From Desulfosudaceae bacterium (GTDB lineage Bacteria; Desulfobacterota; Desulfobacteria; Desulfobacterales; Desulfosudaceae), in assembly GCA_963674745.2 (NCBI GenBank), contig CAXXDV010000003.1, forward strand, positions 160,001 through 224,000: DNA of 64,000 bases. Direction: 5' to 3'. The notes under the pieces were generated by a model that was not told the DNA's origin, made no database searches, and worked only from the letters and a program-made list of their open reading frames with translations. Below, in pieces: positions 30,941 through 42,473 of this stretch; position 1 is the first letter of the stretch, and every line of letters starts with the position of its first letter. The position numbers were made by a program, and so were the translations under genes.

Positions 30941-33589
30941 TCATGACATGTCCGCGTCAATATGTCTGGTAATAATCGTATATAACTGCTCCATCCGGAA
31001 CGGTTTGGCAATGTAATCGTTCATTCCGGCTGCCAGAAATCTCTCCTTGTCGCCTTTCATGGCGTGGGCGGTCACAGCAATTATCGGAATCCGGTGGTTG
31101 ATAACGTTTGACTCCGGGCTGCGGATAACGTTGGTCGCTTCGATGCCGTCCATTTTGGGCATCTGGGCATCCATTAGTACGATGTCATAAATCGTCGTTT
31201 CAAGGGCATGGATTGCTTCTTTGCCATTGTTGACAATATCCACCTGAAAACCAAGCTTTTCAAGAATTCGGCTGGCCAACAACTGGTTGACGGGATTGTC
31301 TTCAACAATCAGGACGCGGTGGGTGGAATGCTTCTCTCTACGGCTATCGAGGATGGCCTTTTTTCCGGATTGTAAATCGGGATCATATGTTTCGTTCTCA
31401 TTGTAAAGAAGGGATATCAGGCAATTGAATAACTGGGAGCGCTTCAGTGGCTTGGTCAGCGTGGTGGTAAAGTTGTTTTTCTCTGAACCGGCCGGGTTTT
31501 GACGGCCGTAACCGGTTAAATGAACCAGTATGGTTTTGTCGATGAGCGGATCAGATTTGATTTTCTGGGCAACCGGGGTTACGCCCTCTTTGCTTATCCC
31601 GGCATCAATGATGGCCAGGTCAAAGGGCGCTGTCTCTTCGGCGGAACGCCTCAATAAGGATAAAGCCTGCTCCGCTTCGGTCGCGAGCCGGTGCCGACAA
31701 CCCCAGGATGACAGATAGCCTGAAAGGATGGCGCGCTCTTTTTCGTTTTCTGATATAATAAGAATTTTCTTGTCGCGGATATCAGCCGGTAGTGTTAACA
31801 GCCGTTTATCCGGCCCCGGCTGTTTTTCAAAAACGGCCGTAAACCAGAAGGCCGCACCTTTACCTTCCTGGCTTTGAACACCGATCTCACCGCCCATCAT
31901 GCTGACAATCTGTTTGGAAATAACCAGGCCCAGACCGGTCCCCCCGTATTCTCTGGTGGTGGAAGAATCGACCTGGGAAAAAGGTTTGAAAAGACGGTCC
32001 ATCCGGTTTTCGGGAATACCAATCCCTGTATCTGATATTGTAAATTTCAGTGTGGCCTGGGTGTCGGTCTCATGTCCCAATTCCACATGGATCGTAATGT
32101 CTCCCTTTTGCGTAAACTTGATGGCATTTCCGGTCAGGTTGATCAGGACCTGCTTGAGTCGGTGAGGGTCACCTATCAGAAAGGTCGGTGTGTTCGGATC
32201 AATGATATTATACATATCCAGGTGTTTCTGGTAAGCTTTTATGGCCAGTACGTCTCCGGCGGTTTCTATGGTTTTGATCAGGTCAAATTCAATTTTTTCA
32301 ATGGCCAGTTTGCCGGCCTCTATTTTTGAGAAATCAAGAATATCTTCTATGATTAACAGCAGAGAATCAGCGCTTTGTCTTATAATCTCAGCAAACTCCC
32401 GCTGCTCATCATCCATTTTCGAGTTCAGCAGCAGTTTGGCCATGCCGATGATCCCGTTCATGGGTGTTCGTATCTCATGGCTCATGTTGGCCAGAAAATT
32501 GCTTTTTGCCCTGGCTGCAAGTTCGGCTTCTTCTTTTGCTTTTCTTAATTCTTCCTCATAATGCTTCTGCTCGGAAATATCTCTGGAAAAATAGACCAGG
32601 CGTAACGGTTTATCCGTTTTCTCCCTGATGATATTGCCCGTCATCATGGCCGGAAATGTCGAGCCGTCCTTTCGTTTATGCCCGACTTCTCCGGAATACC
32701 CACCCCTTGATACGGCTCTATCATTAAACGGAATGAACTCATCGTTAAATTGTCTGTCCGTGTGGAAAAGTGAAATGTGACAGTCTTCGAGTTCGCTGGG
32801 CTTATAACCGTGCATGGCTGCCCAGGCATTGTTGGCAAATTTGATGGCGCCATAGGCGTTGGCCACGACAATACCGTCCATTGACTGTTCCATTGCTTTT
32901 TCCAGCATAAACGTCTGATCCAGCGGTCGGATGATAGAACGATTGATGATCAGGGAAGTGAAAAAAACCGAAACGGTTAAAACAATGATGAAAACGATTA
33001 GATTGCTGTATCGATGACGGATGCTGACGCCCCTGATGGATGCCAGTTCAGCATTGAGTTCATTAGAGAAAGAGTCGGCGAATATAACCAGTTCTTTCCG
33101 CAATTCACTATTCTGTCGGGAGAGTTGATGCGCTTTTTGATTGAATTGATCCGGCCGTATCACGTTGCCGGTATTGTCAAACATATGTGTCATTAACTGG
33201 GGGTAAAACTTCTGGGCGGATTCCGTGTAAGCCTTCCAGTGATTGAGAATAGCGACGGCTTCTTCGAGTTTCCGGGGCTCGATGTCCTGCAGGCCGGCTA
33301 CCCTTCTGATGGCCAGGGCCACCTTTTCGGCCATATCACTGGCGGATTCAAAGTAGGATTTTTCACCGATCAGCACGGCTTCTTTGTATTGTTTAACCTG
33401 TTCTTCAAAAGCCGAAAGCGCGGCCTGACTGTATTTGGCTGCGGGATAAATATATCCGGAAACCCTGTCCAGGCGTTGCTCTGTCTGCCGGCCGAGATAG
33501 AACCCGATGGAGATGGAAATGGAATAACCGATTACCAGTATGCTCAGGCTGAGCCAAATTTTTGTAGAAACACTTAACGGCTGGCGCAT
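30941..33589 (-). CDS. Hybrid sensor histidine kinase (periplasmic sensor, PAS, HisKA, HATPase, two REC domains)
   Basis: 'FLANMSHEIRTPMNG', 'NLTGNAIKFT', 'DTGIG', 'YGGTGLGL', 'VEDNPVN', 'LMDAQMPKMDG'. Confidence 0.95.
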   Translation of the reverse strand: MRQPLSVSTKIWLSLSILVIGYSISISIGFYLGRQTEQRLDRVSGYIYPAAKYSQAALSAFEEQVKQYKEAVLIGEKSYFESASDMAEKVALAIRRVAGLQDIEPRKLEEAVAILNHWKAYTESAQKFYPQLMTHMFDNTGNVIRPDQFNQKAHQLSRQNSELRKELVIFADSFSNELNAELASIRGVSIRHRYSNLIVFIIVLTVSVFFTSLIINRSIIRPLDQTFMLEKAMEQSMDGIVVANAYGAIKFANNAWAAMHGYKPSELEDCHISLFHTDRQFNDEFIPFNDRAVSRGGYSGEVGHKRKDGSTFPAMMTGNIIREKTDKPLRLVYFSRDISEQKHYEEELRKAKEEAELAARAKSNFLANMSHEIRTPMNGIIGMAKLLLNSKMDDEQREFAEIIRQSADSLLLIIEDILDFSKIEAGKLAIEKIEFDLIKTIETAGDVLAIKAYQKHLDMYNIIDPNTPTFLIGDPHRLKQVLINLTGNAIKFTQKGDITIHVELGHETDTQATLKFTISDTGIGIPENRMDRLFKPFSQVDSSTTREYGGTGLGLVISKQIVSMMGGEIGVQSQEGKGAAFWFTAVFEKQPGPDKRLLTLPADIRDKKILIISENEKERAILSGYLSSWGCRHRLATEAEQALSLLRRSAEETAPFDLAIIDAGISKEGVTPVAQKIKSDPLIDKTILVHLTGYGRQNPAGSEKNNFTTTLTKPLKRSQLFNCLISLLYNENETYDPDLQSGKKAILDSRREKHSTHRVLIVEDNPVNQLLASRILEKLGFQVDIVNNGKEAIHALETTIYDIVLMDAQMPKMDGIEATNVIRSPESNVINHRIPIIAVTAHAMKGDKERFLAAGMNDYIAKPFRMEQLYTIITRHIDADMS

Positions 33590-33957
33590 ATCTGTGTCTC
33601 GAGAACTTTTTTATAAATCATTTAACCGGCCCCAAAAGGGTTAAGGCGTGAAAAGAACGGTTTTGTGAAGTCCTAATAGTTTAATTCCGGGCTGTCGCAA
33701 TAAGCACGAATTGTTTAGTTTTTATAAAGAAAATAATAGCATGAATAATGACAATTATTCAAATATTTTATGCGGCAAGGCAGGCCCCGGAATGATTCGG
33801 GGTATAATTTTTAAATATATTTCAATCAGGACCGCTTAATTGGAAAAGCGGACATATCCCAAAAACAGTAAATAACACTTGACTTTTCCTCTTTGCTCAT
33901 GTACCAAACCATAAAATACGATCAAGGGTATATATTTTATATTAAATTGAAAGTGTC

Positions 33958-34044
33958 ATGAGCGTGCGTAACCGTATAGACAGATTCTATTTTTTTTATT
34001 TTTGGTATTATTATTTTAATACCGGTCTGTCTGTGGTGCGTTGA
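33958..34044 (+). CDS. Aromatic amino acid operon leader peptide (28 aa, MSVRNRIDRFYFFYFWYYYFNTGLSVVR)
   Basis: Translated by hand: ATG 33958 to TGA 34042-34044, with 11 consecutive F/Y/W codons at 33985-34017. Confidence 0.9.
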   Translation: MSVRNRIDRFYFFYFWYYYFNTGLSVVR

Positions 34045-34070
34045 ACTGAATTAAATAAAGAAAACAAAAA

Positions 34071-34110
34071 AAGCCGCGGGCGGATCGAACAAGCCCGCGG
34101 CTTTTTTTTT
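34071..34110 (+). terminator. Attenuator terminator (3:4)
   Basis: AAGCCGCGGGC-11 nt loop-GCCCGCGGCTT followed by a T9 run, about 45 nt before the first operon gene. Confidence 0.92.
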
Positions 34111-34156
34111 CGCGGGCGCCGGTCTTTTTGTCAGCGCGTGAACAGGAGGAAGGACC

Positions 34157-34960
34157 ATGACGATTTTGGGGAAAAAAATCAGGCTGGAGCGGTTGGTTAA
34201 CAGAAACACAGGCAGAACGGTGATCGTCCCTATGGATCACGGTGTATCGGTGGGCCCGATTGACGGGGTGACCGACATCCGGACCGCGGTGGGACTCGTG
34301 GCCGAGGGCGGTGCCAATGCCGTGGTGGAGCACAAGGGCCTGGTGCCCAAAGGACATCGCGGCGGCGGACGGGATATCGGTTTGATCATTCATCTGTCGG
34401 CTTCAACCAGCCTGTCTCCGACGCCGAACGCCAAGACCCTGGTCTGCACGGTTGAAGAGGCCGTCAAGCTGGGAGCGGATGGCGTGTCTATCCATGTCAA
34501 TATCGGCGATCGGGATGAAAAACAGATGCTGAAAGACTTCGGGAAAATCAGCGCTGATGCCCGGGAATGGGGAATGCCGCTGCTGGCCATGATTTATCCC
34601 CGGGGAGAGAAAATCAAAGACGAATATGATGTCCAGGTGATCAAACATGCCGCTCGCGTTGGAGATGAACTCGGGGCGGATATCGTCAAAGTCTCTTATA
34701 CCGGCGATGTGGATACCTTCCGACAGGTCGTGGCCGGATGTGCCATACCGGTGGTGATCGCAGGCGGACCGAAGATGGATTCGGACAAGGCCATTCTTGA
34801 AATGGTCAAAGGGGCCATTGACGCCGGTGGTGCGGGTGTGTCCATCGGCAGAAATGTTTTTCAACACGCCAATCCGTCCCGAATGGTGGCGGCTATCGCC
34901 GCAGTGGTGAATGAGGAGGCTGATGTCGATCAGGCGCTGAAAATGCTGAATCAATCTTAA
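34157..34960 (+). CDS. 2-amino-3,7-dideoxy-D-threo-hept-6-ulosonate synthase (AroA', DhnA-type class I aldolase)
   Basis: 'GKKIRLERL', 'VPMDHG', 'HLSAST', 'MIYPRG', 'ELGADIVK', 'GRNVFQ'. Adjacent to DHQ synthase II. Confidence 0.9.
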
Positions 34961-34981
34961 TTTTCGGAAAGGTGGAGGACC

Positions 34982-35974
34982 ATGCGAAAAATATGGGTCA
35001 AGGTTGATCCCTGGGATAAAAAGATGGTGACAACCGCGCTGGAAGGGGGTGCCGACGGGATACTGGTACCACCGGGGTGTTCAGAAAAGGTCAAGGAACT
35101 GGGAAGGGTTGAAACCATTGCCGAGGACGGAGACCTTAAACTTGGTGAAGAGGTGGTTTTTTTTGAGATCACATCGAGCGACGATGAAGAAGAAATTATC
35201 CGTCTCTGCCGGGATAAAAAAGTGATTCTGCAATGTCCGGACTGGACCATTATTCCCCTTGAGAACCTGATCGCCAGGCAGGTGGATGTCATTACACAGG
35301 TGACCAGTGCTGATGAAGCGCGGACCGCGGCCGGTATTCTGGAAAAAGGCGTTCGGCACCTGCTGGTGGACGCGCCTGATCCGGTGGAATTAAAGAACGC
35401 CATTTCGGCCATCAGGGAAAAAGGGGATCAGACCCCGCTGCAGGTGGCCGAGATAACCGAAATCAGGGCGGTCGGCATGGGTGACCGGGTATGCGTTGAT
35501 ACCTGTACCGCTATGACGGAAGGGCAGGGAATGCTGGTGGGTAACAGCAGCGGGGCGCTTTTTCTGGTTCATTCGGAAAGTATCACCAATCCTTACGTTT
35601 CACCCCGTCCGTTTCGGGTCAATGCCGGGCCGGTCCACGCTTATACCCGGGTGCCCGGCGGGAAAACCCGGTATCTGTCGGAACTGTCCGCCGGGGACCG
35701 GATTCTGATCACAGATTACCAGGGCAAGACGACCGAGGGAGTGGTCGGCCGTTTGAAAATCGAGAAACGCCCGTTGATGCTGGTCAAAGCCGTTGTGGAG
35801 GGCAAGCCGGTTTCCACCATTGTTCAGAACGCGGAAACGATCCGCCTGACAGCCCCGGACGGCAAACCGGTTTCGGTTGTAGCACTCAAACCCGGAGATA
35901 GCGTGCTGGTGTCCATTGAGGCGGGAGGACGGCATTTCGGTTATAAAATCGAAGAGACGATTACGGAAAAGTAG
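34982..35974 (+). CDS. 3-dehydroquinate synthase II (AroB', archaeal type)
   Basis: 'GDRVCVDTC', 'GMLVG', 'RPFRVNAGPVHAY', 'YLSEL', 'KIEKRP', 'QNAETI', 'GRHFG'. Confidence 0.93.
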   Translation: MRKIWVKVDPWDKKMVTTALEGGADGILVPPGCSEKVKELGRVETIAEDGDLKLGEEVVFFEITSSDDEEEIIRLCRDKKVILQCPDWTIIPLENLIARQVDVITQVTSADEARTAAGILEKGVRHLLVDAPDPVELKNAISAIREKGDQTPLQVAEITEIRAVGMGDRVCVDTCTAMTEGQGMLVGNSSGALFLVHSESITNPYVSPRPFRVNAGPVHAYTRVPGGKTRYLSELSAGDRILITDYQGKTTEGVVGRLKIEKRPLMLVKAVVEGKPVSTIVQNAETIRLTAPDGKPVSVVALKPGDSVLVSIEAGGRHFGYKIEETITEK

Positions 35975-36016: not shown

Positions 36017-37120
36017 ATGAACCGGAACAACACGGAAAAAACAGAAAAACGGATCGAAGATCTTCGCCGTGATATTGATGCTATTGATGTCAGAATCCTG
36101 GACCTTTTGAATGAAAGGATGGCACTTGCCCGGCAGATCGGTGAATGTAAGGCCGGAGCCGGACACGCCATTGTGGATAAAGCGCGCGAAGACAATCTGC
36201 TTAAAGCGTTATTGTCGCAGAATCCCGGCCCGCTGGATAATGAAAAACTGAAAAAAGTATTCAGTGAGATTATTGCTGCCGCCAGACAGGTCCAGGAGCC
36301 CCGTATCATATCTTACCTGGGCCCGGAGGCAACCTTTACCCATGTGGCCGCTCTGTCCTATTTCGGGAGATCCGACACATTGATCCCGCAACCCAGCATC
36401 AAGGACGTGTTTGACGAGGTGGAAAAAGGGGCCAGTCGTTACGGCGTGGTGCCGGTTGAGAATTCCATAGAGGGGGCCGTCAATCATACCCTGGACCTGT
36501 TCCAGGAGTCGGATCTGCAGATCTGTGCCGAAGCGTATCTGGTTATTTCCCATGACCTGCTGTCACTTTCGGGGGAGCTGGATAAAATCAGGACGGTTTA
36601 TTCCCACCCGCAGACGTTCGCGCAATGCCGGCGCTGGCTGAATAAACATCTGCCGGAGGTGAGCCTGGTGGAATGCAGCAGTAACGCTCAGGCCGCGAAG
36701 ATGGCCATGGCATCGGATGAAACAGGCGCCATTGCCGGCCGGGAAGCGGGCAGGATTTACGGGTTGCAGGTCGTCGCCTCCCGGATTCAGGATGTCGTCC
36801 GCAACACCACTCGTTTTCTGGTTATCGGAAACGACCGGGTGCCCCGGACCGGTAACGACAAGACATCGATTATGCTGGTCACGGCCCATGTCCCCGGCGC
36901 CCTGTTCCAGGCCCTGGGTCCGATTTCCGAGGGCGGCATCAACATGCTGAAGCTGGAATCACGGCCGGCCAAGTATGAAAACTGGAGTTATGTGTTTTTC
37001 GTGGATCTTCTCGGCCATGCCAAAGACGAACCGGTCACGCAGACATTGGCCCTGATGAAGGACAGGTGCCAGTTCCTTAAAGTGCTCGGATCTTATCCCG
37101 TTGCGACGATAAAGGGTTGA
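36017..37120 (+). CDS. pheA: Chorismate mutase/prephenate dehydratase
   Basis: N-terminal CM domain 'LRRDIDAID', 'YLGPEATF', 'VPVENSIEG', 'SHPQ', 'NTTRF', ACT domain 'LESRP'. Confidence 0.95.
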   Translation: MNRNNTEKTEKRIEDLRRDIDAIDVRILDLLNERMALARQIGECKAGAGHAIVDKAREDNLLKALLSQNPGPLDNEKLKKVFSEIIAAARQVQEPRIISYLGPEATFTHVAALSYFGRSDTLIPQPSIKDVFDEVEKGASRYGVVPVENSIEGAVNHTLDLFQESDLQICAEAYLVISHDLLSLSGELDKIRTVYSHPQTFAQCRRWLNKHLPEVSLVECSSNAQAAKMAMASDETGAIAGREAGRIYGLQVVASRIQDVVRNTTRFLVIGNDRVPRTGNDKTSIMLVTAHVPGALFQALGPISEGGINMLKLESRPAKYENWSYVFFVDLLGHAKDEPVTQTLALMKDRCQFLKVLGSYPVATIKG

Positions 37121-37126
37121 CAGAGT

Positions 37127-37960
37127 ATGGATATTGATGCGGAAACAAGGGTTTATTGTGTCCTGGGGAATCCGGTGGCGCACAGCAAGGGACCGGTCAT
37201 GCATAATGCCGCTTTTGCCGCTACCGGTGTCAACGGTGTCTATGTCGCCTTTGCGGTGACGGATATTGCCGGCGCGGTTAAAGGGCTGCGCGCGCTGGAT
37301 GTGGGCGGCGCCAGTGTGACCATCCCCCACAAGGTCGATATCATGCCGCATCTTGACCTGGTGGATGAAGACGCCCTTCGTATCGGCGCTGTCAATACTG
37401 TTGTCAACCGGGACGGCCGGTTAATCGGGTATAATTCAGACTGGCGCGGCGCTGTCCGGGCGTTACAGGAGAAAACCCCGATCAGCGGGAAAAAGGTCAT
37501 GGTGGTCGGGGCCGGTGGCGCGGCCCGGGCGGTTGCCTACGGCATCATGAAGGAGAACGGCCGGCTGATCGTCGTCAACCGCACGGCAGAAAAAGCGAAA
37601 TCCCTGGCCAACGATTTCGAAGGGGAAGCGATGTCCCTGGTGGAAGCCGAATCATGCGACTGGGATATCCTGATCAATACAACGCCGATGGGGATGACGC
37701 CGGTAGATGATCTGTCTCCGGTGCCGGTCCACTGGCTTATACCGGGTCGGGTGGTCATGGATATCGTTTATAATCCTTTGATGACCCGGATGTTGAAAGA
37801 GGCCGCGGAACAGGGATGTGAAATCATCGACGGGGTTGCCATGTTTGTCTATCAGGGGGCTTATCAGTTCGAAGCCTGGACCGGTCGCCGGGCGCCGGTC
37901 GATAAGATGAGGCAGGCGGTACTGGCCGCTTTAAAAGAAAACAGGGAAGGTGAAATCTGA
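37127..37960 (+). CDS. aroE: Shikimate dehydrogenase
   Basis: 'GNPVAHS', 'VTIPHK', 'IGAVNT', 'GAGGAARA', 'NRT', 'DIVYNP'. Confidence 0.95.
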   Translation: MDIDAETRVYCVLGNPVAHSKGPVMHNAAFAATGVNGVYVAFAVTDIAGAVKGLRALDVGGASVTIPHKVDIMPHLDLVDEDALRIGAVNTVVNRDGRLIGYNSDWRGAVRALQEKTPISGKKVMVVGAGGAARAVAYGIMKENGRLIVVNRTAEKAKSLANDFEGEAMSLVEAESCDWDILINTTPMGMTPVDDLSPVPVHWLIPGRVVMDIVYNPLMTRMLKEAAEQGCEIIDGVAMFVYQGAYQFEAWTGRRAPVDKMRQAVLAALKENREGEI

Positions 37961-39222
37961 TGAAAGAAATCAAAACAGGAAAAATCAGAAGTTGTGCGGT
38001 GACCGTTCCGGGATCAAAAAGCTATACGCATCGATGCCTGATCGCCGCGGCGCTTTCCAACGGAATCTGCGAACTGGAGAATTGTCTGGACAGTGAAGAT
38101 ACCCGTTTGACCCGGGTATCGCTGGAAAAGATGGGGGTTGTCATTGAGGACCACAACGGGGCAACAGTCGTGCACGGTACCGGCGGCCGGTTGTCGCCTT
38201 GTGATGATCCGATATACCTGGGCAACTCCGGAACTTCCATGCGTCTTCTGACCGCAGTGGCGGCACTGGGGCAGGGCCCCTATGTGCTGACCGGTTCTGA
38301 AAGGATGACACAGCGGCCGATCGGTGACCTGCTTGACGGACTGAATCGTATCGGCGTTGATGCCCGCAGCCTGGAACACAACGGCTGTCCCCCGTTGTCT
38401 GTAGACGGGAAGAACATGGCCGGCGGGCACATTGATTTAAAATGCGGGCTCAGCAGTCAGTTTTTGTCCGCCTTGCTTCTTGTTGCGCCTTATATAAATG
38501 AAGGGCTGGATATCGCGGTTGTGGAAGGACCGGTTTCCAAGCCTTATATCGATTTAACGGTTACCATAATGGAAAAATACGGTGTGCGTCTGGAACGGGA
38601 CCGTTACGCCCGGTTCCGTGTTCCCGGTGGGCAATGCTATCAGAAAGGCCGATATGTCGTTGAGGCGGATGCCTCACAGGCCGGTTATTTCTGGGCCGCC
38701 GCCGCTGTAACCGGGGCAACCGTCAAGGTCCTGGGGATGTCTTCGGATTCACAACAGGGCGATATCCGCTTTCTTGAGGTGTTGGAGGCTATGGGCTGCC
38801 GGGTCGCGCATGAAGCCGACGGTATTTCCGTAACCGGCGGTAAACTGGTCTCGGTGGAGGTGGATATGTCGGACATGCCGGATATGGTCCCCACCCTGGC
38901 GGTTGTGGCGGCTTTTGCCAGAGGTTCCACGGTCATCAGGAACGTGGCACATTTAAAAGCCAAGGAAAGCGATCGTCTGGCCGTTGTGGCCAACGGGTTG
39001 AGCAAAATGGGTATTATCGCCATGAACGATAATGTCGGTTTGACGATTATCGGTGGCCGTCCATCCGGTGCCCGTATTGATCCTCACGATGATCACCGGA
39101 TCGCCATGAGCTTTGCCGTGGTCGGCCTGGTTACGCCGGGCGTCATTATTCTGGATGAAAATTGTGTGGAAAAATCGTTTCCCACATTCTGGCAGGTATT
39201 TGAAACCTTGTATGAATCCTGA
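37960..39222 (+). CDS. aroA: 3-phosphoshikimate 1-carboxyvinyltransferase (EPSP synthase)
   Basis: 'PGSKSYTHR', 'GNSGTSMR', 'SSQFLS', 'KESDR', 'DHRIAM', 'KSFP'. Confidence 0.96.
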   Translation: MKEIKTGKIRSCAVTVPGSKSYTHRCLIAAALSNGICELENCLDSEDTRLTRVSLEKMGVVIEDHNGATVVHGTGGRLSPCDDPIYLGNSGTSMRLLTAVAALGQGPYVLTGSERMTQRPIGDLLDGLNRIGVDARSLEHNGCPPLSVDGKNMAGGHIDLKCGLSSQFLSALLLVAPYINEGLDIAVVEGPVSKPYIDLTVTIMEKYGVRLERDRYARFRVPGGQCYQKGRYVVEADASQAGYFWAAAAVTGATVKVLGMSSDSQQGDIRFLEVLEAMGCRVAHEADGISVTGGKLVSVEVDMSDMPDMVPTLAVVAAFARGSTVIRNVAHLKAKESDRLAVVANGLSKMGIIAMNDNVGLTIIGGRPSGARIDPHDDHRIAMSFAVVGLVTPGVIILDENCVEKSFPTFWQVFETLYES

Positions 39223-39751
39223 AAAAACAATGAACATATTTCTTATCGGCTACCGCTGTACCGGAAAAACAACCGTGGGCAGGCGCCTGGCGGTTTTGAC
39301 CGGAAGGCGTTTTGTGGACACGGATGATTGCTTTACCGACCGGCATGGCGTTACCATTACCGAATTTGTGGCCGATTACGGCTGGGAAGCGTTTCGTAAA
39401 CAGGAATCAGTTGTTTTAGACACGGTCTCCCGGGAGGACGGGAATGTCGTATCAACCGGCGGGGGGATTGTCCTGAAACCGGAAAACGTGTCGCTGATGA
39501 AAGATCGTGGCCTGGTGGTCTGGCTGATGGCGTCGAAGGAAACGATACTGGATCGGATGTCAGCCGATCCCGCTTCGGCGGATTTCCGTCCGGGGTTGAC
39601 CGACTATCCGTTGCAAGAGGAGATTGCCAGAACACTGGCTGAAAGAACGCCGCTTTATGAGAATGCCATGGACCTTTCGGTTGATACCGAAGGTATGGCG
39701 GTCGAAGATATCTGCCGCCGCGTCATTGGCGCGGCGGGCGGGAAAGGATGA
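39212..39751 (+). CDS. aroK: Shikimate kinase
   Basis: 'IFLIGYRCTGKTTVG', 'DTD', 'GWEAFR', 'STGGG', 'RP', 'RTPLY'. Alternative start 39230. Confidence 0.92.
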   Translation: MNPEKTMNIFLIGYRCTGKTTVGRRLAVLTGRRFVDTDDCFTDRHGVTITEFVADYGWEAFRKQESVVLDTVSREDGNVVSTGGGIVLKPENVSLMKDRGLVVWLMASKETILDRMSADPASADFRPGLTDYPLQEEIARTLAERTPLYENAMDLSVDTEGMAVEDICRRVIGAAGGKG

Positions 39752-39754
39752 ATC

Positions 39755-40807
39755 ATGTCCGGAAACACATGGGGAAGGTTGTTTCGCGTAACGACCTGGG
39801 GCGAATCACACGGCCGGGGAACCGGCGTGGTCATTGATGGCTGCCCGCCGGGAATATCCCTGGATGAGGGCGTGGTCCAGGCGATGCTGGACCGCCGTAA
39901 ACCGGGACAATCCAGTGCCAGCACCAAACGCCGAGAGAAGGACCGGGCCGTTATTATGTCCGGGGTATTTGAAGGCGTGACGACCGGGACCCCGATCATG
40001 ATCATGGCCGAGAACAAGGACGCCGACTCATCGGCATACACTCCGTATGCCGGTCTGTTCCGCCCCGGACATGGTGATTATACTTATGCCGGCAAGTACG
40101 GGGTCCGGGACTGGCGTGGCGGCGGCCGGGCCTCGGCCAGGGAGACACTGGCCAGGGTGGCCGCCGGTGCCGTGGCCGGAGCACTTCTGGAAAAGGCGGG
40201 GATTCGGGTATATTCTTATACAGAAGAACTCGGTGGTATTGCAGCAAAAACAATCGATCTTGAAGAGACCGGTCGGAACATGTTCTGTTGTCCGGATGCT
40301 GAAGCCGCTCTTAAGATCGCCGTCCGCGTGGATGAGGTCAGGAAAAACGGTGATTCGCTGGGAGGCATCGTGGCGGTCCGGGCTACCGGTGTACCGGTTG
40401 GCCTGGGGGCGCCCGTGTTTGACAAGCTGGACGCCGACATCGCCAAGGCCCTGATGAGTATCGGTGCCGTCAAGGGAGTTGAGATCGGTGCGGGCTTCGC
40501 GGTAGCGGCAAGAACGGGTTCGGAAAATAATGATGAGATGACACCGGAAGGTTTTACGTCGAATAATGCCGGCGGTATCCTGGCCGGTATTTCCAACGGG
40601 GATGATATTGTCGTCAGGGCAGCGGTTAAGCCCATTCCCTCAATCGCCAGCGAGCAGAAGACCATTGACACGGATGGTAACCCCACTACCGTTTCCGTCA
40701 AGGGACGGCATGATATCTCGGCCATCCCGCGGATCAATGTCGTCTGTGAAGCCATGCTTTGCCTTGTTCTGGCAGATCATTTTTTAAGACAGAAAGCGAT
40801 TAAATGA
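39755..40807 (+). CDS. aroC: Chorismate synthase
   Basis: 'GESHG', 'RPGH', '[10 protein letters not shown]', '[11 protein letters not shown]', 'GRHD'. Confidence 0.97.
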
Positions 40808-41655
40808 ACGGTATCAAAATAGGCATCATCGGTGGTACCGGCGGGATGGGCCGCTGGTTTGAAAAATATTTTAGGGACAACGGTCATCAGGTGCTGGTCG
40901 CCGGCCGAAAGACGGATTTGACTTACCACGACCTGGTCGATAAGTGCCGGGTATTGGCTATCAGCACCCCTCTGGAGCCGGCTCTGGAAATTATCGGCAA
41001 AATAGGTCCGACCCTGCGTGAGGATCAGCTGCTGATTGATTTTTGCTCCCAGAAGGAACGCATTGTCGAGCGGATGGCGGATGCCACCCCGGCCGATGTT
41101 ATCGGTACACATCCCATGTTCGCACCCAACACCCCGTCTATCAGTGGGCTGAACGTCATTGTCTGCCCGGCACGGGACAGGAACGGCTGGCTACCCTGGC
41201 TGGAGTCCCTGTTTTCGGAAAAAGGCGCTGTTGTTACCCGCATGGATCCGGCTGAGCATGACCGGAAGATGGCCATGGCTCAGAGCCTGATGCATTTTCT
41301 GACCCTTTCCCTGGGGCGTATGCTTCAATGTTTCGATTTAAGTGCGGCAGAAGCGTTCCGCTTTGCCACCCCCATTTTCCGCATTAATATTGATCTCATC
41401 GGCCGTCTCCTGTCCCAGGATATCAATCTGTATGCCGAGCTGGTCAGTGACAATAAATATGCACCGGAAATTTTGCAATCATTGTCCCTTGCCATGGATG
41501 ATTGCCGAAAAGCGTTTTTTTCCGGGGAAAGACAGTCGGCGCTGGCGTTTATGGGATCAATCAGGGATTTTCTGGGGGATGATTTTTGTCAGCAGGCACT
41601 GGACGAGACCACCCGGTCGTTGAGTATCATGTATGAGCCGGTAGAAAAAGCGTAA
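40804..41655 (+). CDS. tyrA: Prephenate/arogenate dehydrogenase
   Basis: 'IIGGTGGMG', 'DFCSQK', 'THPMFAP', '[10 protein letters not shown]'. Confidence 0.88.
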
Positions 41656-41723: not shown

Positions 41724-42473
41724 TTATTTCAATTGCCGTCTGTCGCGGCGGGAGGAAAAATCGGTCAGCGGCCGAAGCGGTGCTTTTTGATTTTTCTGTT
41801 TTTCTTCTTTTTCATCTTTCATTTGCATGGCGGACATGAGGACATTCATAAGCGGCTGCTTGATGACATTTTCCCGCTTACGGCAGATGCCCTCAACCTC
41901 AATGATGATCTTGTCCCAGGTCAGCAGTTCCTGGGCGGCTTTCATGCCGGTCAATCTTTCGGAGGCAGCGTTGATCAGTGCGCCTTCCCGAAAATACATG
42001 TTGCCGGTTTTTTCGCCGGATCTAACCTTGATGGTGGCGGTTTTTTTTTCCATTTCCATCAACTGCAGAAAGGAGGAAAGACTGATCCCCGAGATTTGTC
42101 CTTCGGCGCCCGCGTTTAACTGTTCGAAAACAGCATCGGTCAGAATGTCCATGTTAAGAGGCTTTTCAAAATATTTGAAGGCGCCCATTTCCATCACCTT
42201 GTCCTCGATTTCCTTGGTGCCGAAAGCGGTCATGATGAACACCGGTGTGCCGGGGTAATTTTTATTGATGTATTCCAGAAGCTGGATGCCGTCCATAATC
42301 GGCATTTCCAGGTCACTGATGATAAGGTCGATGGTGTTATCCGTCATCAGGTAGGCGGCTTCTTCGCCGTTTTGAGCGGTCAGAATTTCAAAGTCCTTGG
42401 CGTAAGGTTTCATTACCCTTGATAACAATCCGCGGGAAACCGCGTCGTCATCAACGATGAGAACTTTTTTCAC
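41724..42473 (-). CDS. Response regulator (REC + DUF4388-like domain)
   Basis: 'VLIVDDD', 'ISDLEMP', 'MTAFG', 'EKP', followed by 'GISLSSFLQLMEMEKKT...GNMYFREG'. GTG start. Confidence 0.88.
   Translation of the reverse strand: MKKVLIVDDDAVSRGLLSRVMKPYAKDFEILTAQNGEEAAYLMTDNTIDLIISDLEMPIMDGIQLLEYINKNYPGTPVFIMTAFGTKEIEDKVMEMGAFKYFEKPLNMDILTDAVFEQLNAGAEGQISGISLSSFLQLMEMEKKTATIKVRSGEKTGNMYFREGALINAASERLTGMKAAQELLTWDKIIIEVEGICRKRENVIKQPLMNVLMSAMQMKDEKEEKQKNQKAPLRPLTDFSSRRDRRQLK

Follow-up and report, generated by a model that had tools for sequence, protein, structure and literature searches.

The window analysed here is a 64,000-nucleotide (nt) stretch of contig CAXXDV010000003.1 (positions 160,001 to 224,000) from the 5.55-Mb, 99.96% complete genome of a Desulfosudaceae bacterium (assembly GCA_963674745.2). 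It holds an eight-gene operon for aromatic amino acid synthesis, preceded by a short open reading frame (sORF) rich in aromatic codons and by an intrinsic terminator; an earlier note, made from the sequence alone, had read this leader as a transcription attenuator that senses Phe, Tyr and Trp together. The operon genes, aroA'-aroB'-pheA-aroE-aroA-aroK-aroC-tyrA, lie in the same direction with short or overlapping junctions, and the block is closed by a convergent open reading frame (ORF; 41724-42473, minus strand). aroA' comes first, its ATG lying 46 nt after the end of the terminator (34110), and together with aroB' it encodes the unusual, "archaeal-type" entry enzymes of the aromatic pathway. 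No 3-deoxy-D-arabino-heptulosonate 7-phosphate (DAHP) synthase of the aroFGH type was found in this nearly complete genome, where the I-beta type gave only a match below its cut-off (121 versus 267.75 bits). Among the families tested (class II lay outside the search), the operon thus appears to hold the sole entry to the pathway. On the other side of the leader, a hybrid histidine kinase gene (30941-33589, minus strand) is divergent from it, so the terminator ends no gene. The features are collected in Table 1.

Table 1. The leader, its RNA segments and the genes behind it (positions in the window)
Feature	Position	Strand	Description
Leader ORF	33958..34044	+	MSVRNRIDRFYFFYFWYYYFNTGLSVVR, then stop; 28 codons plus TGA (34042-44); homologous in-frame sORFs in 71 aligned relatives
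Regulatory run	33985..34017	+	11 aromatic codons: TTC TAT TTT TTT TAT TTT TGG TAT TAT TAT TTT
Segment 1 (anti-antiterminator 5' strand)	33963..33985	+	Core TAGACAGA, counterpart of consensus CAGGCAGA; seen in the minimum free energy (MFE) fold
Inner hairpin inside the 1:2 loop	34003..34024	+	UGGUAUUA / UAAUACCG; 34003-34010 with 34017-34024; MFE fold; moderate support
Segment 2	34024..34044	+	Begins GGTCTGTCTGTGGTGCGT; partner of segment 1 or segment 3; encodes conserved tail GL(P/S)(G/V)VR
Segment 3	34073..34086	+	5' arm of the terminator; antiterminator partner of segment 2
Intrinsic terminator	34071..34110	+	Hairpin 34071-34103 (GCCGCGGGC ... GCCCGCGGC), 11-nt loop; T9 tail 34102-34110
CGCGGGCGC	34111..34119	+	Complementary to terminator arm 4 (34093-34101); site of the second-terminator 5' arm in 44 of 71 relatives
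Shine-Dalgarno (SD) sequence and aroA'	34144..34960	+	SD AGGAGG (34144-49), ATG 34157; 2-amino-3,7-dideoxy-D-threo-hept-6-ulosonate synthase family; NF005556, 406.5 bits
aroB'	34982-35974	+	3-Dehydroquinate (DHQ) synthase II; 507 bits
pheA	36017-37120	+	Chorismate mutase/prephenate dehydratase
aroE	37127-37960	+	
aroA	37960-39222	+	5-Enolpyruvylshikimate 3-phosphate (EPSP) synthase
aroK	about 39236-39751	+	
aroC	39755-40807	+	
tyrA	40804-41655	+	

The leader translates exactly as first described, and its codons 10 to 20 read FYFFYFWYYYF, an uninterrupted run of five Phe, five Tyr and one Trp codons. Such density is rare in this organism: in six frames of the whole 5.55 Mb, only four places reach at least nine aromatic codons per 11 stop-free codons. 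One of these four, a frame on contig C1 that reads YYSYYSYYFFY, was rejected as a leader, being a DNA tandem repeat, (ATAGTTATT)x3, before a DNA-binding/response-regulator gene. This repeat (G000:C1, about 2472700, minus strand) stands beside a TTGACA, gives YYSYYSYY in one frame, has an excisionase-type helix-turn-helix/response-regulator gene downstream and is probably an operator or promoter repeat rather than a leader.

Folding of the region 33950-34115 gave an MFE of -54.4 kcal/mol, against -36.8 +/- 3.5 kcal/mol for 200 shuffled sequences (z = -5.05; no shuffle was as good), and recovered the pairings that the earlier note had proposed and wished to see folded. AGACAGA (33978-84) pairs with TCTGTCT (34026-32) inside a longer helix of the MFE fold, 33963-33985 with 34025-34044 (1:2). 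The antiterminator (2:3), for which 14 pairs had been claimed, appears as a helix of 14-15 bp between 34024-37 and 34073-86 when the transcript is cut before segment 4. The proposed terminator (3:4) and its T9 tail are present as well, the hairpin being G+C-rich, situated 28 nt past the leader stop and flanked by AA and TT. The 1:2 duplex has a computed energy of -20.1 kcal/mol, the 2:3 duplex one of -25.8 kcal/mol and the 3:4 hairpin one of -23.1 kcal/mol. In the inner hairpin, GG from the Trp codon is matched with CC from an ACC codon (conserved ACCGG). Folds simulating a stalled ribosome, with the transcript cut before segment 4 and everything masked as far as 14 nt beyond the A site, made the 2:3 helix the MFE structure when the A site stood at codons 10-18; a ribosome on the stop codon (masked to 34056) leaves this helix unable to form.

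Three sequence traits by which a leader-peptide attenuator is recognised occur here: a run of codons for the end products of the operon in a short upstream ORF, an intrinsic terminator separating this ORF from the first structural gene, and an antiterminator that uses one strand of the terminator and has an upstream helix as its competitor. From the ORF, the three alternative helices with their energies, and the conservation and covariation described below, we infer that the sORF is translated and that stalling, termination and a physiological response follow. Transcription would begin upstream of 33958, and a ribosome would translate the 28-codon leader. With plentiful Tyr and Phe it would reach the TGA and cover segment 2; segment 3 would then pair with segment 4, the terminator would form and RNA polymerase would stop before aroA'. 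Scarcity of a charged aromatic tRNA would instead stall the ribosome within the codon run, where it would hold segment 1 and leave segment 2 free to pair with newly made segment 3, blocking the terminator and allowing the operon to be read through. If the leader were not translated, 1:2 pairing would let the terminator form. We put the probability that the element is a ribosome-mediated transcription attenuator of the eight-gene operon at about 85%. It is predicted to respond mainly to the charging of tRNA-Tyr and tRNA-Phe, on behalf of the common aromatic pathway as well as the Phe and Tyr branches, with a possible minor input from tRNA-Trp.

Conservation carries much of this reading. Eighty loci with aroA' relatives (66-83% identity) were compared, most of them from Desulfobacterales, together with metagenome-assembled genomes labelled as Syntrophobacterales, Desulfobaccales and Desulfatibacillaceae. 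Among the 76 with 300 nt or more of sequence ahead of the gene, an aromatic-rich sORF, defined by at least seven aromatic codons in 10 and a distance of at most 400 nt to aroA', precedes aroA' at 66, versus 1 of 76 on the reverse complement. Carriers of the element include loci recorded as Desulfosudis oleivorans (L064, L071), Desulfocicer vacuolatum (L074) and Desulfatirhabdium butyrativorans (L043). Alignment with MAFFT (A1) comprised 71 leaders including that of the window; it left out two doubtful ORFs (L013, L054), four loci with less than 300 nt upstream (L022, L007, L012, L051), a degenerate leader with five aromatic codons (L003) and three loci where no leader was found (L018, L038, L076). 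The aligned leaders start with ATG in 59 cases, carry an SD-like 4-mer at -17 to -4 in 50, and encode peptides with a median of 26 residues whose runs hold a median of 9 aromatic codons (range 6-13). Four blocks are conserved in A1: segment 1 (CAGGCAGA) immediately ahead of the run and segment 2 (GGUCUGCCUGGGGUGCG) immediately behind it, then segment 3 (GCCGUGGGCAGAC), and segment 4 (CCCACGGC) with U-runs after it. The sequence of segment 2 complements that of segment 1 as well as GGCAGAC within segment 3; segment 3 can also pair with segment 4 as the terminator.

Both alternative folds hold across the alignment. The terminated state (1:2 plus 3:4; 17 pairs) is paired in 88.9% of 1087 cells, compared with 33-43% in slid controls; 11 of its pairs have changed on both sides, and its covariation score was reached by 0 of 500 shuffles. 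Helix 1 is paired in 86.1% of cells with both-side changes in 5 of 8 pairs, and helix 2, the terminator, in 91.1% with such changes in 6 of 9. For the 12 pairs of the antiterminator the figure is 82.6% of 786 cells (slid controls, 30-47%), and half of these pairs (6/12) have changed on both sides. The inner hairpin reaches 73.5% versus 27-47% when slid. The window itself contributes a double change at pair 61/131, where it has A-U, not G-C, the A-U state being the rarer one (2 of 55 lettered cells). The earlier note had advised looking upstream of aroA' orthologues for sORFs rich in F/Y/W and for covarying stems; both were found, and the trpL/pheL-type geometry it described is strongly supported by the conserved frame and the two RNA folds across the 71 relatives. 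At the RNA level, contigs of one sediment metatranscriptome (0.06 share of words) cover only 33994-34027 and parts of aroA'. The 34-nt match in the leader has 4 differences and is followed by unlike sequence, which indicates the leader of a relative; these contigs show no transcript start, end or level at the locus.

A covariance model (R1), built from the alignment with the terminated-state structure, was applied to 61 genomes sampled from the window's order; at E<=1e-6 it matched 50 of them, including 40 of the 48 high-quality ones, and 63 of 151 sampled genomes of the phylum at E<=1e-3, the weak matches having been checked in part. Of the 29 loci that scored best in the phylum, all except L104 (WGWWW, 5 of 10) carry an sORF rich in aromatic codons (5-10 per 10 codons). 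The 28 ORFs downstream of these best loci comprise 14 aroA', seven DAHP synthases I-beta, two DAHP synthases I-alpha, one aroK, one indolepyruvate:ferredoxin oxidoreductase alpha subunit, two LivJ-like ATP-binding cassette (ABC) transporter binding proteins and one without assignment. Behind 19 lower-scoring matches lie four aroA', seven DAHP synthases I-beta (two of which follow Trp-rich leaders), trpE after a WWWW leader, ilvD and ilvB after leaders rich in Ile and Val, a phenylacetate-CoA ligase after an FFFFFYF leader, an aminotransferase, one doubtful case at a distance of 514 nt and two without assignment. Across the 47 downstream ORFs, aromatic runs stand before aroA' (18) and DAHP synthase I-alpha (2), while DAHP synthase I-beta follows Tyr/Phe-rich leaders in 12 cases and Trp-rich leaders in 2. 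The codon run varies with the downstream pathway on a scaffold that remains recognisable. The link to an "archaeal-type" aro operon drawn in the earlier note holds for the window, where aroA' and aroB' follow, but is overstated as a general tie, the element standing elsewhere before DAHP synthase I-alpha and I-beta, aroK, an aminotransferase and transporters.

Leader-peptide attenuation is a textbook mechanism, and the classical trp and phe attenuators decide kinetically. Like Escherichia coli pheL-pheA and trpL, the window's element has a short ORF with codons for the product, 1:2, 2:3 and 3:4 helices of which the last is an intrinsic terminator, and a stop codon placed so that a finishing ribosome would cover segment 2. 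It differs from them in its run, which combines Tyr, Phe and Trp, extends over far more codons (11) and sits within the loop that separates segment 1 from segment 2, and in its predicted target, which is the entire common pathway together with pheA and tyrA rather than a single terminal branch; many of its relatives also have a second terminator coupled to the first. Phe_leader (RF01859) of E. coli is the best Rfam 15 match over the full model, yet at 34.6 bits (E 0.0018) against a gathering score of 55 it does not make the element a member; nor do Thr_leader (RF00506; 30.2 bits against 55) and Leu_leader (RF00512; 26.7 bits on the wrong strand, against 50), whose matches mostly reflect the terminator. 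The element is absent from Rfam 15, and ORF callers miss the leader.

A functional counterpart exists in Corynebacterium glutamicum, whose aroR-aroF attenuator was reportedly described by Neshat et al. (2014). aroR is a Phe-Tyr-Phe leader before a DAHP synthase gene (PMC11802643, PMC4046766). It resembles the window's leader in placing mixed aromatic codons before the first enzyme of the shikimate pathway, a functional analogy, and differs in belonging to Actinobacteria, in having three regulatory codons against 6-13, in lacking Trp and in serving a canonical DAHP synthase. It is the only published mixed-aromatic leader of the common pathway that our literature search brought up. The Desulfobacterota leader is undescribed in the full-text literature searched, subscription papers on comparative attenuator analysis, which may mention delta-proteobacterial leaders, lying outside that search; term look-ups in PMC545781, PMC2965389 and PMC4833913 returned no mention of it. 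The literature and Rfam searches thus agree with the opinion first given that such a leader had not been characterised, and we apparently deal with an undescribed, well-conserved family of classical leader-peptide attenuators.

Several observations weigh against this assignment. The window's ATG has no SD-like 4-mer before it, nor do those of the two nearest relatives (L040, L001), and this is the chief weakness of the case for the window's own copy. A simple scan from 33590 to 33958 found no sigma-70-like promoter; TTGACT at 33879-84 was rejected as a -35 element, there being by eye no good -10 at the correct spacing. RNAalifold returned no consensus structure on the gappy 71-sequence alignment, so the helices were named by the analyst from the consensus and then counted in it. 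At equilibrium, the full-length RNA favours 1:2 plus 3:4 even with the footprint of a stalled ribosome masked, so that readthrough must be decided by kinetics, as it is for the classical attenuators of trp and phe; the appearance of the antiterminator only in folds that end before segment 4 fits kinetic control rather than proving it. Stalls at codons 19-20 would have the ribosome footprint begin to cover segment 2. Finally, a review states that C. glutamicum aroR responds to the availability of Phe, not Tyr (PMC11802643), so that the presence of a codon is no proof of a response to its amino acid.

Three other explanations of the locus were weighed. The missing SD and the retention of conserved stretches at the RNA level would suit a terminator controlled by a riboswitch ligand, a T-box-like tRNA contact or an RNA-binding protein, with the aromatic ORF incidental. 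This is very unlikely, since the gaps in the codon run of A1 span 3, 6 or 9 columns, consistent with a kept frame (lengths untallied), the SD-like motif does occur in 50 of 71 leaders, and the U/A-rich run has no conserved pairing partner save the short inner hairpin. Moreover, the run, be it aromatic, Trp or Ile/Val, tracks the downstream pathway on a constant scaffold, and no riboswitch or T-box family is among the 23 Rfam matches at E<=10 in 33000-35000. Likewise, we see little room for a role of the peptide itself, either arrest of the ribosome by the nascent tail (T)GLPGVR when an amino acid is present in free form, in the manner of TnaC, or an independent function of the hydrophobic peptide such as that reported for peTrpL of Sinorhizobium. 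Among Desulfobacterales-type leaders the peptide sequence of the tail is strikingly conserved, but the third codon positions of segment 2 are as invariant as the first and second, and its most variable column (135) is an unpaired second codon position that switches the residue among Gly, Val and Glu. Both facts point to a constraint on the RNA that leaves the tail as a by-product, and the Syntrophobacterales-like and PWP-ending subgroups combine quite different tails with the same architecture. A chance ORF beside an ordinary terminator, with no regulation at all, has a negligible probability: AT-rich intergenic DNA readily yields TTT and TAT codons, yet the scarcity of comparable runs in the genome, the divergent upstream gene that leaves the terminator no gene to end, and conservation throughout the order contradict it. 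Ribosome-mediated attenuation thus remains the explanation that we prefer.

Which amino acids the attenuator would sense is less clear-cut. The earlier note had proposed a tri-aromatic sensor, in which the Trp codon (34003-05) is regulatory and a shortage of Tyr, Phe or Trp would each open the common pathway. In its favour, 47 of 71 cores have at least one Trp codon, TGG is the commonest codon to interrupt the Phe/Tyr runs (51, before AGC with 22, CGG with 11 and GGG with 8), the operon yields chorismate, which Trp synthesis needs too, and the 2:3 helix still folds with the A site at codon 16. Against it, Tyr (343) and Phe (218) dominate the 51 Trp codons across the runs, 24 of the 71 cores have no Trp, and a single codon is a weak stall signal. 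CGG and GGG take the place of TGG in the runs of some relatives, and TGG, the sole aromatic codon that supplies GG for the GG:CC pairing of the inner hairpin, may be kept partly for structure. The genome also holds a Trp-rich attenuator of its own at trpE, and in another genome a Trp-rich leader is assigned to a separate DAHP synthase (L119 versus L089). A Trp codon is thus indeed present in most cores, but the tri-aromatic claim is overstated; a true three-way sensor seems to us possible though doubtful, and the chance that the single Trp codon contributes measurably to sensing is about one in three.

The trpE attenuator is a paralogue of the window's element situated outside the window (G000:C1:1320445-1320594, plus strand; L082:1501-1650), directly before a gene identified as trpE (TIGR00564, 494.6 bits on a truncated ORF). 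R1 matches it over the full model (46.3 bits, E 5e-8), and its leader ends in NGNWWWQSWRLGSADGV followed by the stop, with WWW and one further Trp. Common to the two are the RNA scaffold, UCUGCC as the core of segment 2, and a terminator built as CCGUGGGCA...CCGCGG with a T-run. The paralogue differs in having no Tyr or Phe inside its run (one Phe codon lies three codons upstream), in two tandem hairpins with T-runs before trpE and in controlling the Trp branch. Its Trp-rich run indicates that Trp supply has a dedicated sensor. Two other genomes each carry a pair of DAHP synthase I-beta genes, one behind a Tyr-rich and one behind a Trp-rich leader (L089 and L119 in G114; likewise L090 and L123 in G080), which on their codon content would be an isozyme-per-amino-acid arrangement exerted through attenuators.

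The tandem hairpins have counterparts among the aro leaders, of which 44 of 71 (e.g., L002, L055, L023) have a second hairpin and T-run after the first terminator. This second terminator lies about 20 nt before aroA' and has a 5' arm (GGCCGTGG) that complements arm 4 of the first, with duplex energies mostly of -11 to -18 kcal/mol. Such leaders may work as a six-segment relay, in which antitermination at the first terminator would release arm 4, and arm 4 would then block the second terminator. The window belongs to the 23 of 71 that have a single terminator, and keeps only a 9-nt complement of arm 4 (34111-34119), possibly a remnant of a second terminator. Many aligned loci also have a small hairpin, GUGCGCUGA...AAGCGC, across the leader stop codon (columns 140-190; e.g., L002, L062), which is absent from the window.

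Other matches extend the range of genes behind the scaffold. L104 (G075:C2) has the WGWWW leader before the indolepyruvate:ferredoxin oxidoreductase alpha gene and L115 (G040:C40) the FFFFFYF leader before the phenylacetate-CoA ligase gene (PaaK); judging by these codons, the two enzymes may act in the synthesis of Trp and of Phe, respectively, in the organisms concerned, via reductive carboxylation of aryl acetates. The Ile/Val-rich leaders of L114 (ilvD) and L122 (ilvB) are matched by R1 at E values around 1e-4 to 1e-5, which suggests a scaffold common to aromatic and branched-chain attenuators in the phylum. Phe-rich leaders before LivJ-like ABC substrate-binding proteins (L100, L102) hint at attenuator control of an uptake system for aromatic amino acids. 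A broader proposal, on which our opinion is evenly divided, is that a single re-programmable attenuator scaffold has spread through Desulfobacterota, being duplicated, having its codon run rewritten and being placed before non-homologous genes, often with a second terminator relayed through 4:5 pairing. Its parts would be segment 1, the codon run in the loop, the segment 2 core UCUGCC and the terminator GCCGYGGG...CCCRCGGC; its runs would be Tyr/Phe(/Trp), pure Trp, pure Phe or Ile/Val, and its targets aroA', DAHP synthase I-alpha/I-beta, trpE, ilv, indolepyruvate:ferredoxin oxidoreductase and phenylacetate-CoA ligase.

To our knowledge, the regulation of aromatic amino acid synthesis in sulfate-reducing Desulfobacterota has been little studied, and the leader described here offers a testable regulatory model for it, in a genome where the pathway starts with aroA'/aroB'. 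Since the element occurs in 50 of 61 genomes sampled from the order and has no entry in Rfam 15, the annotation of hundreds of genomes would gain from a covariance model. Leader codon content reports the amino acid served downstream, as with Trp- and Tyr-specific DAHP synthase isozymes, and points to biosynthetic roles of the indolepyruvate oxidoreductase and phenylacetate-CoA ligase. If the scaffold has indeed spread as proposed, its leaders would provide a phylum-wide annotation, readable from sequence, of the amino acid that each downstream gene serves.

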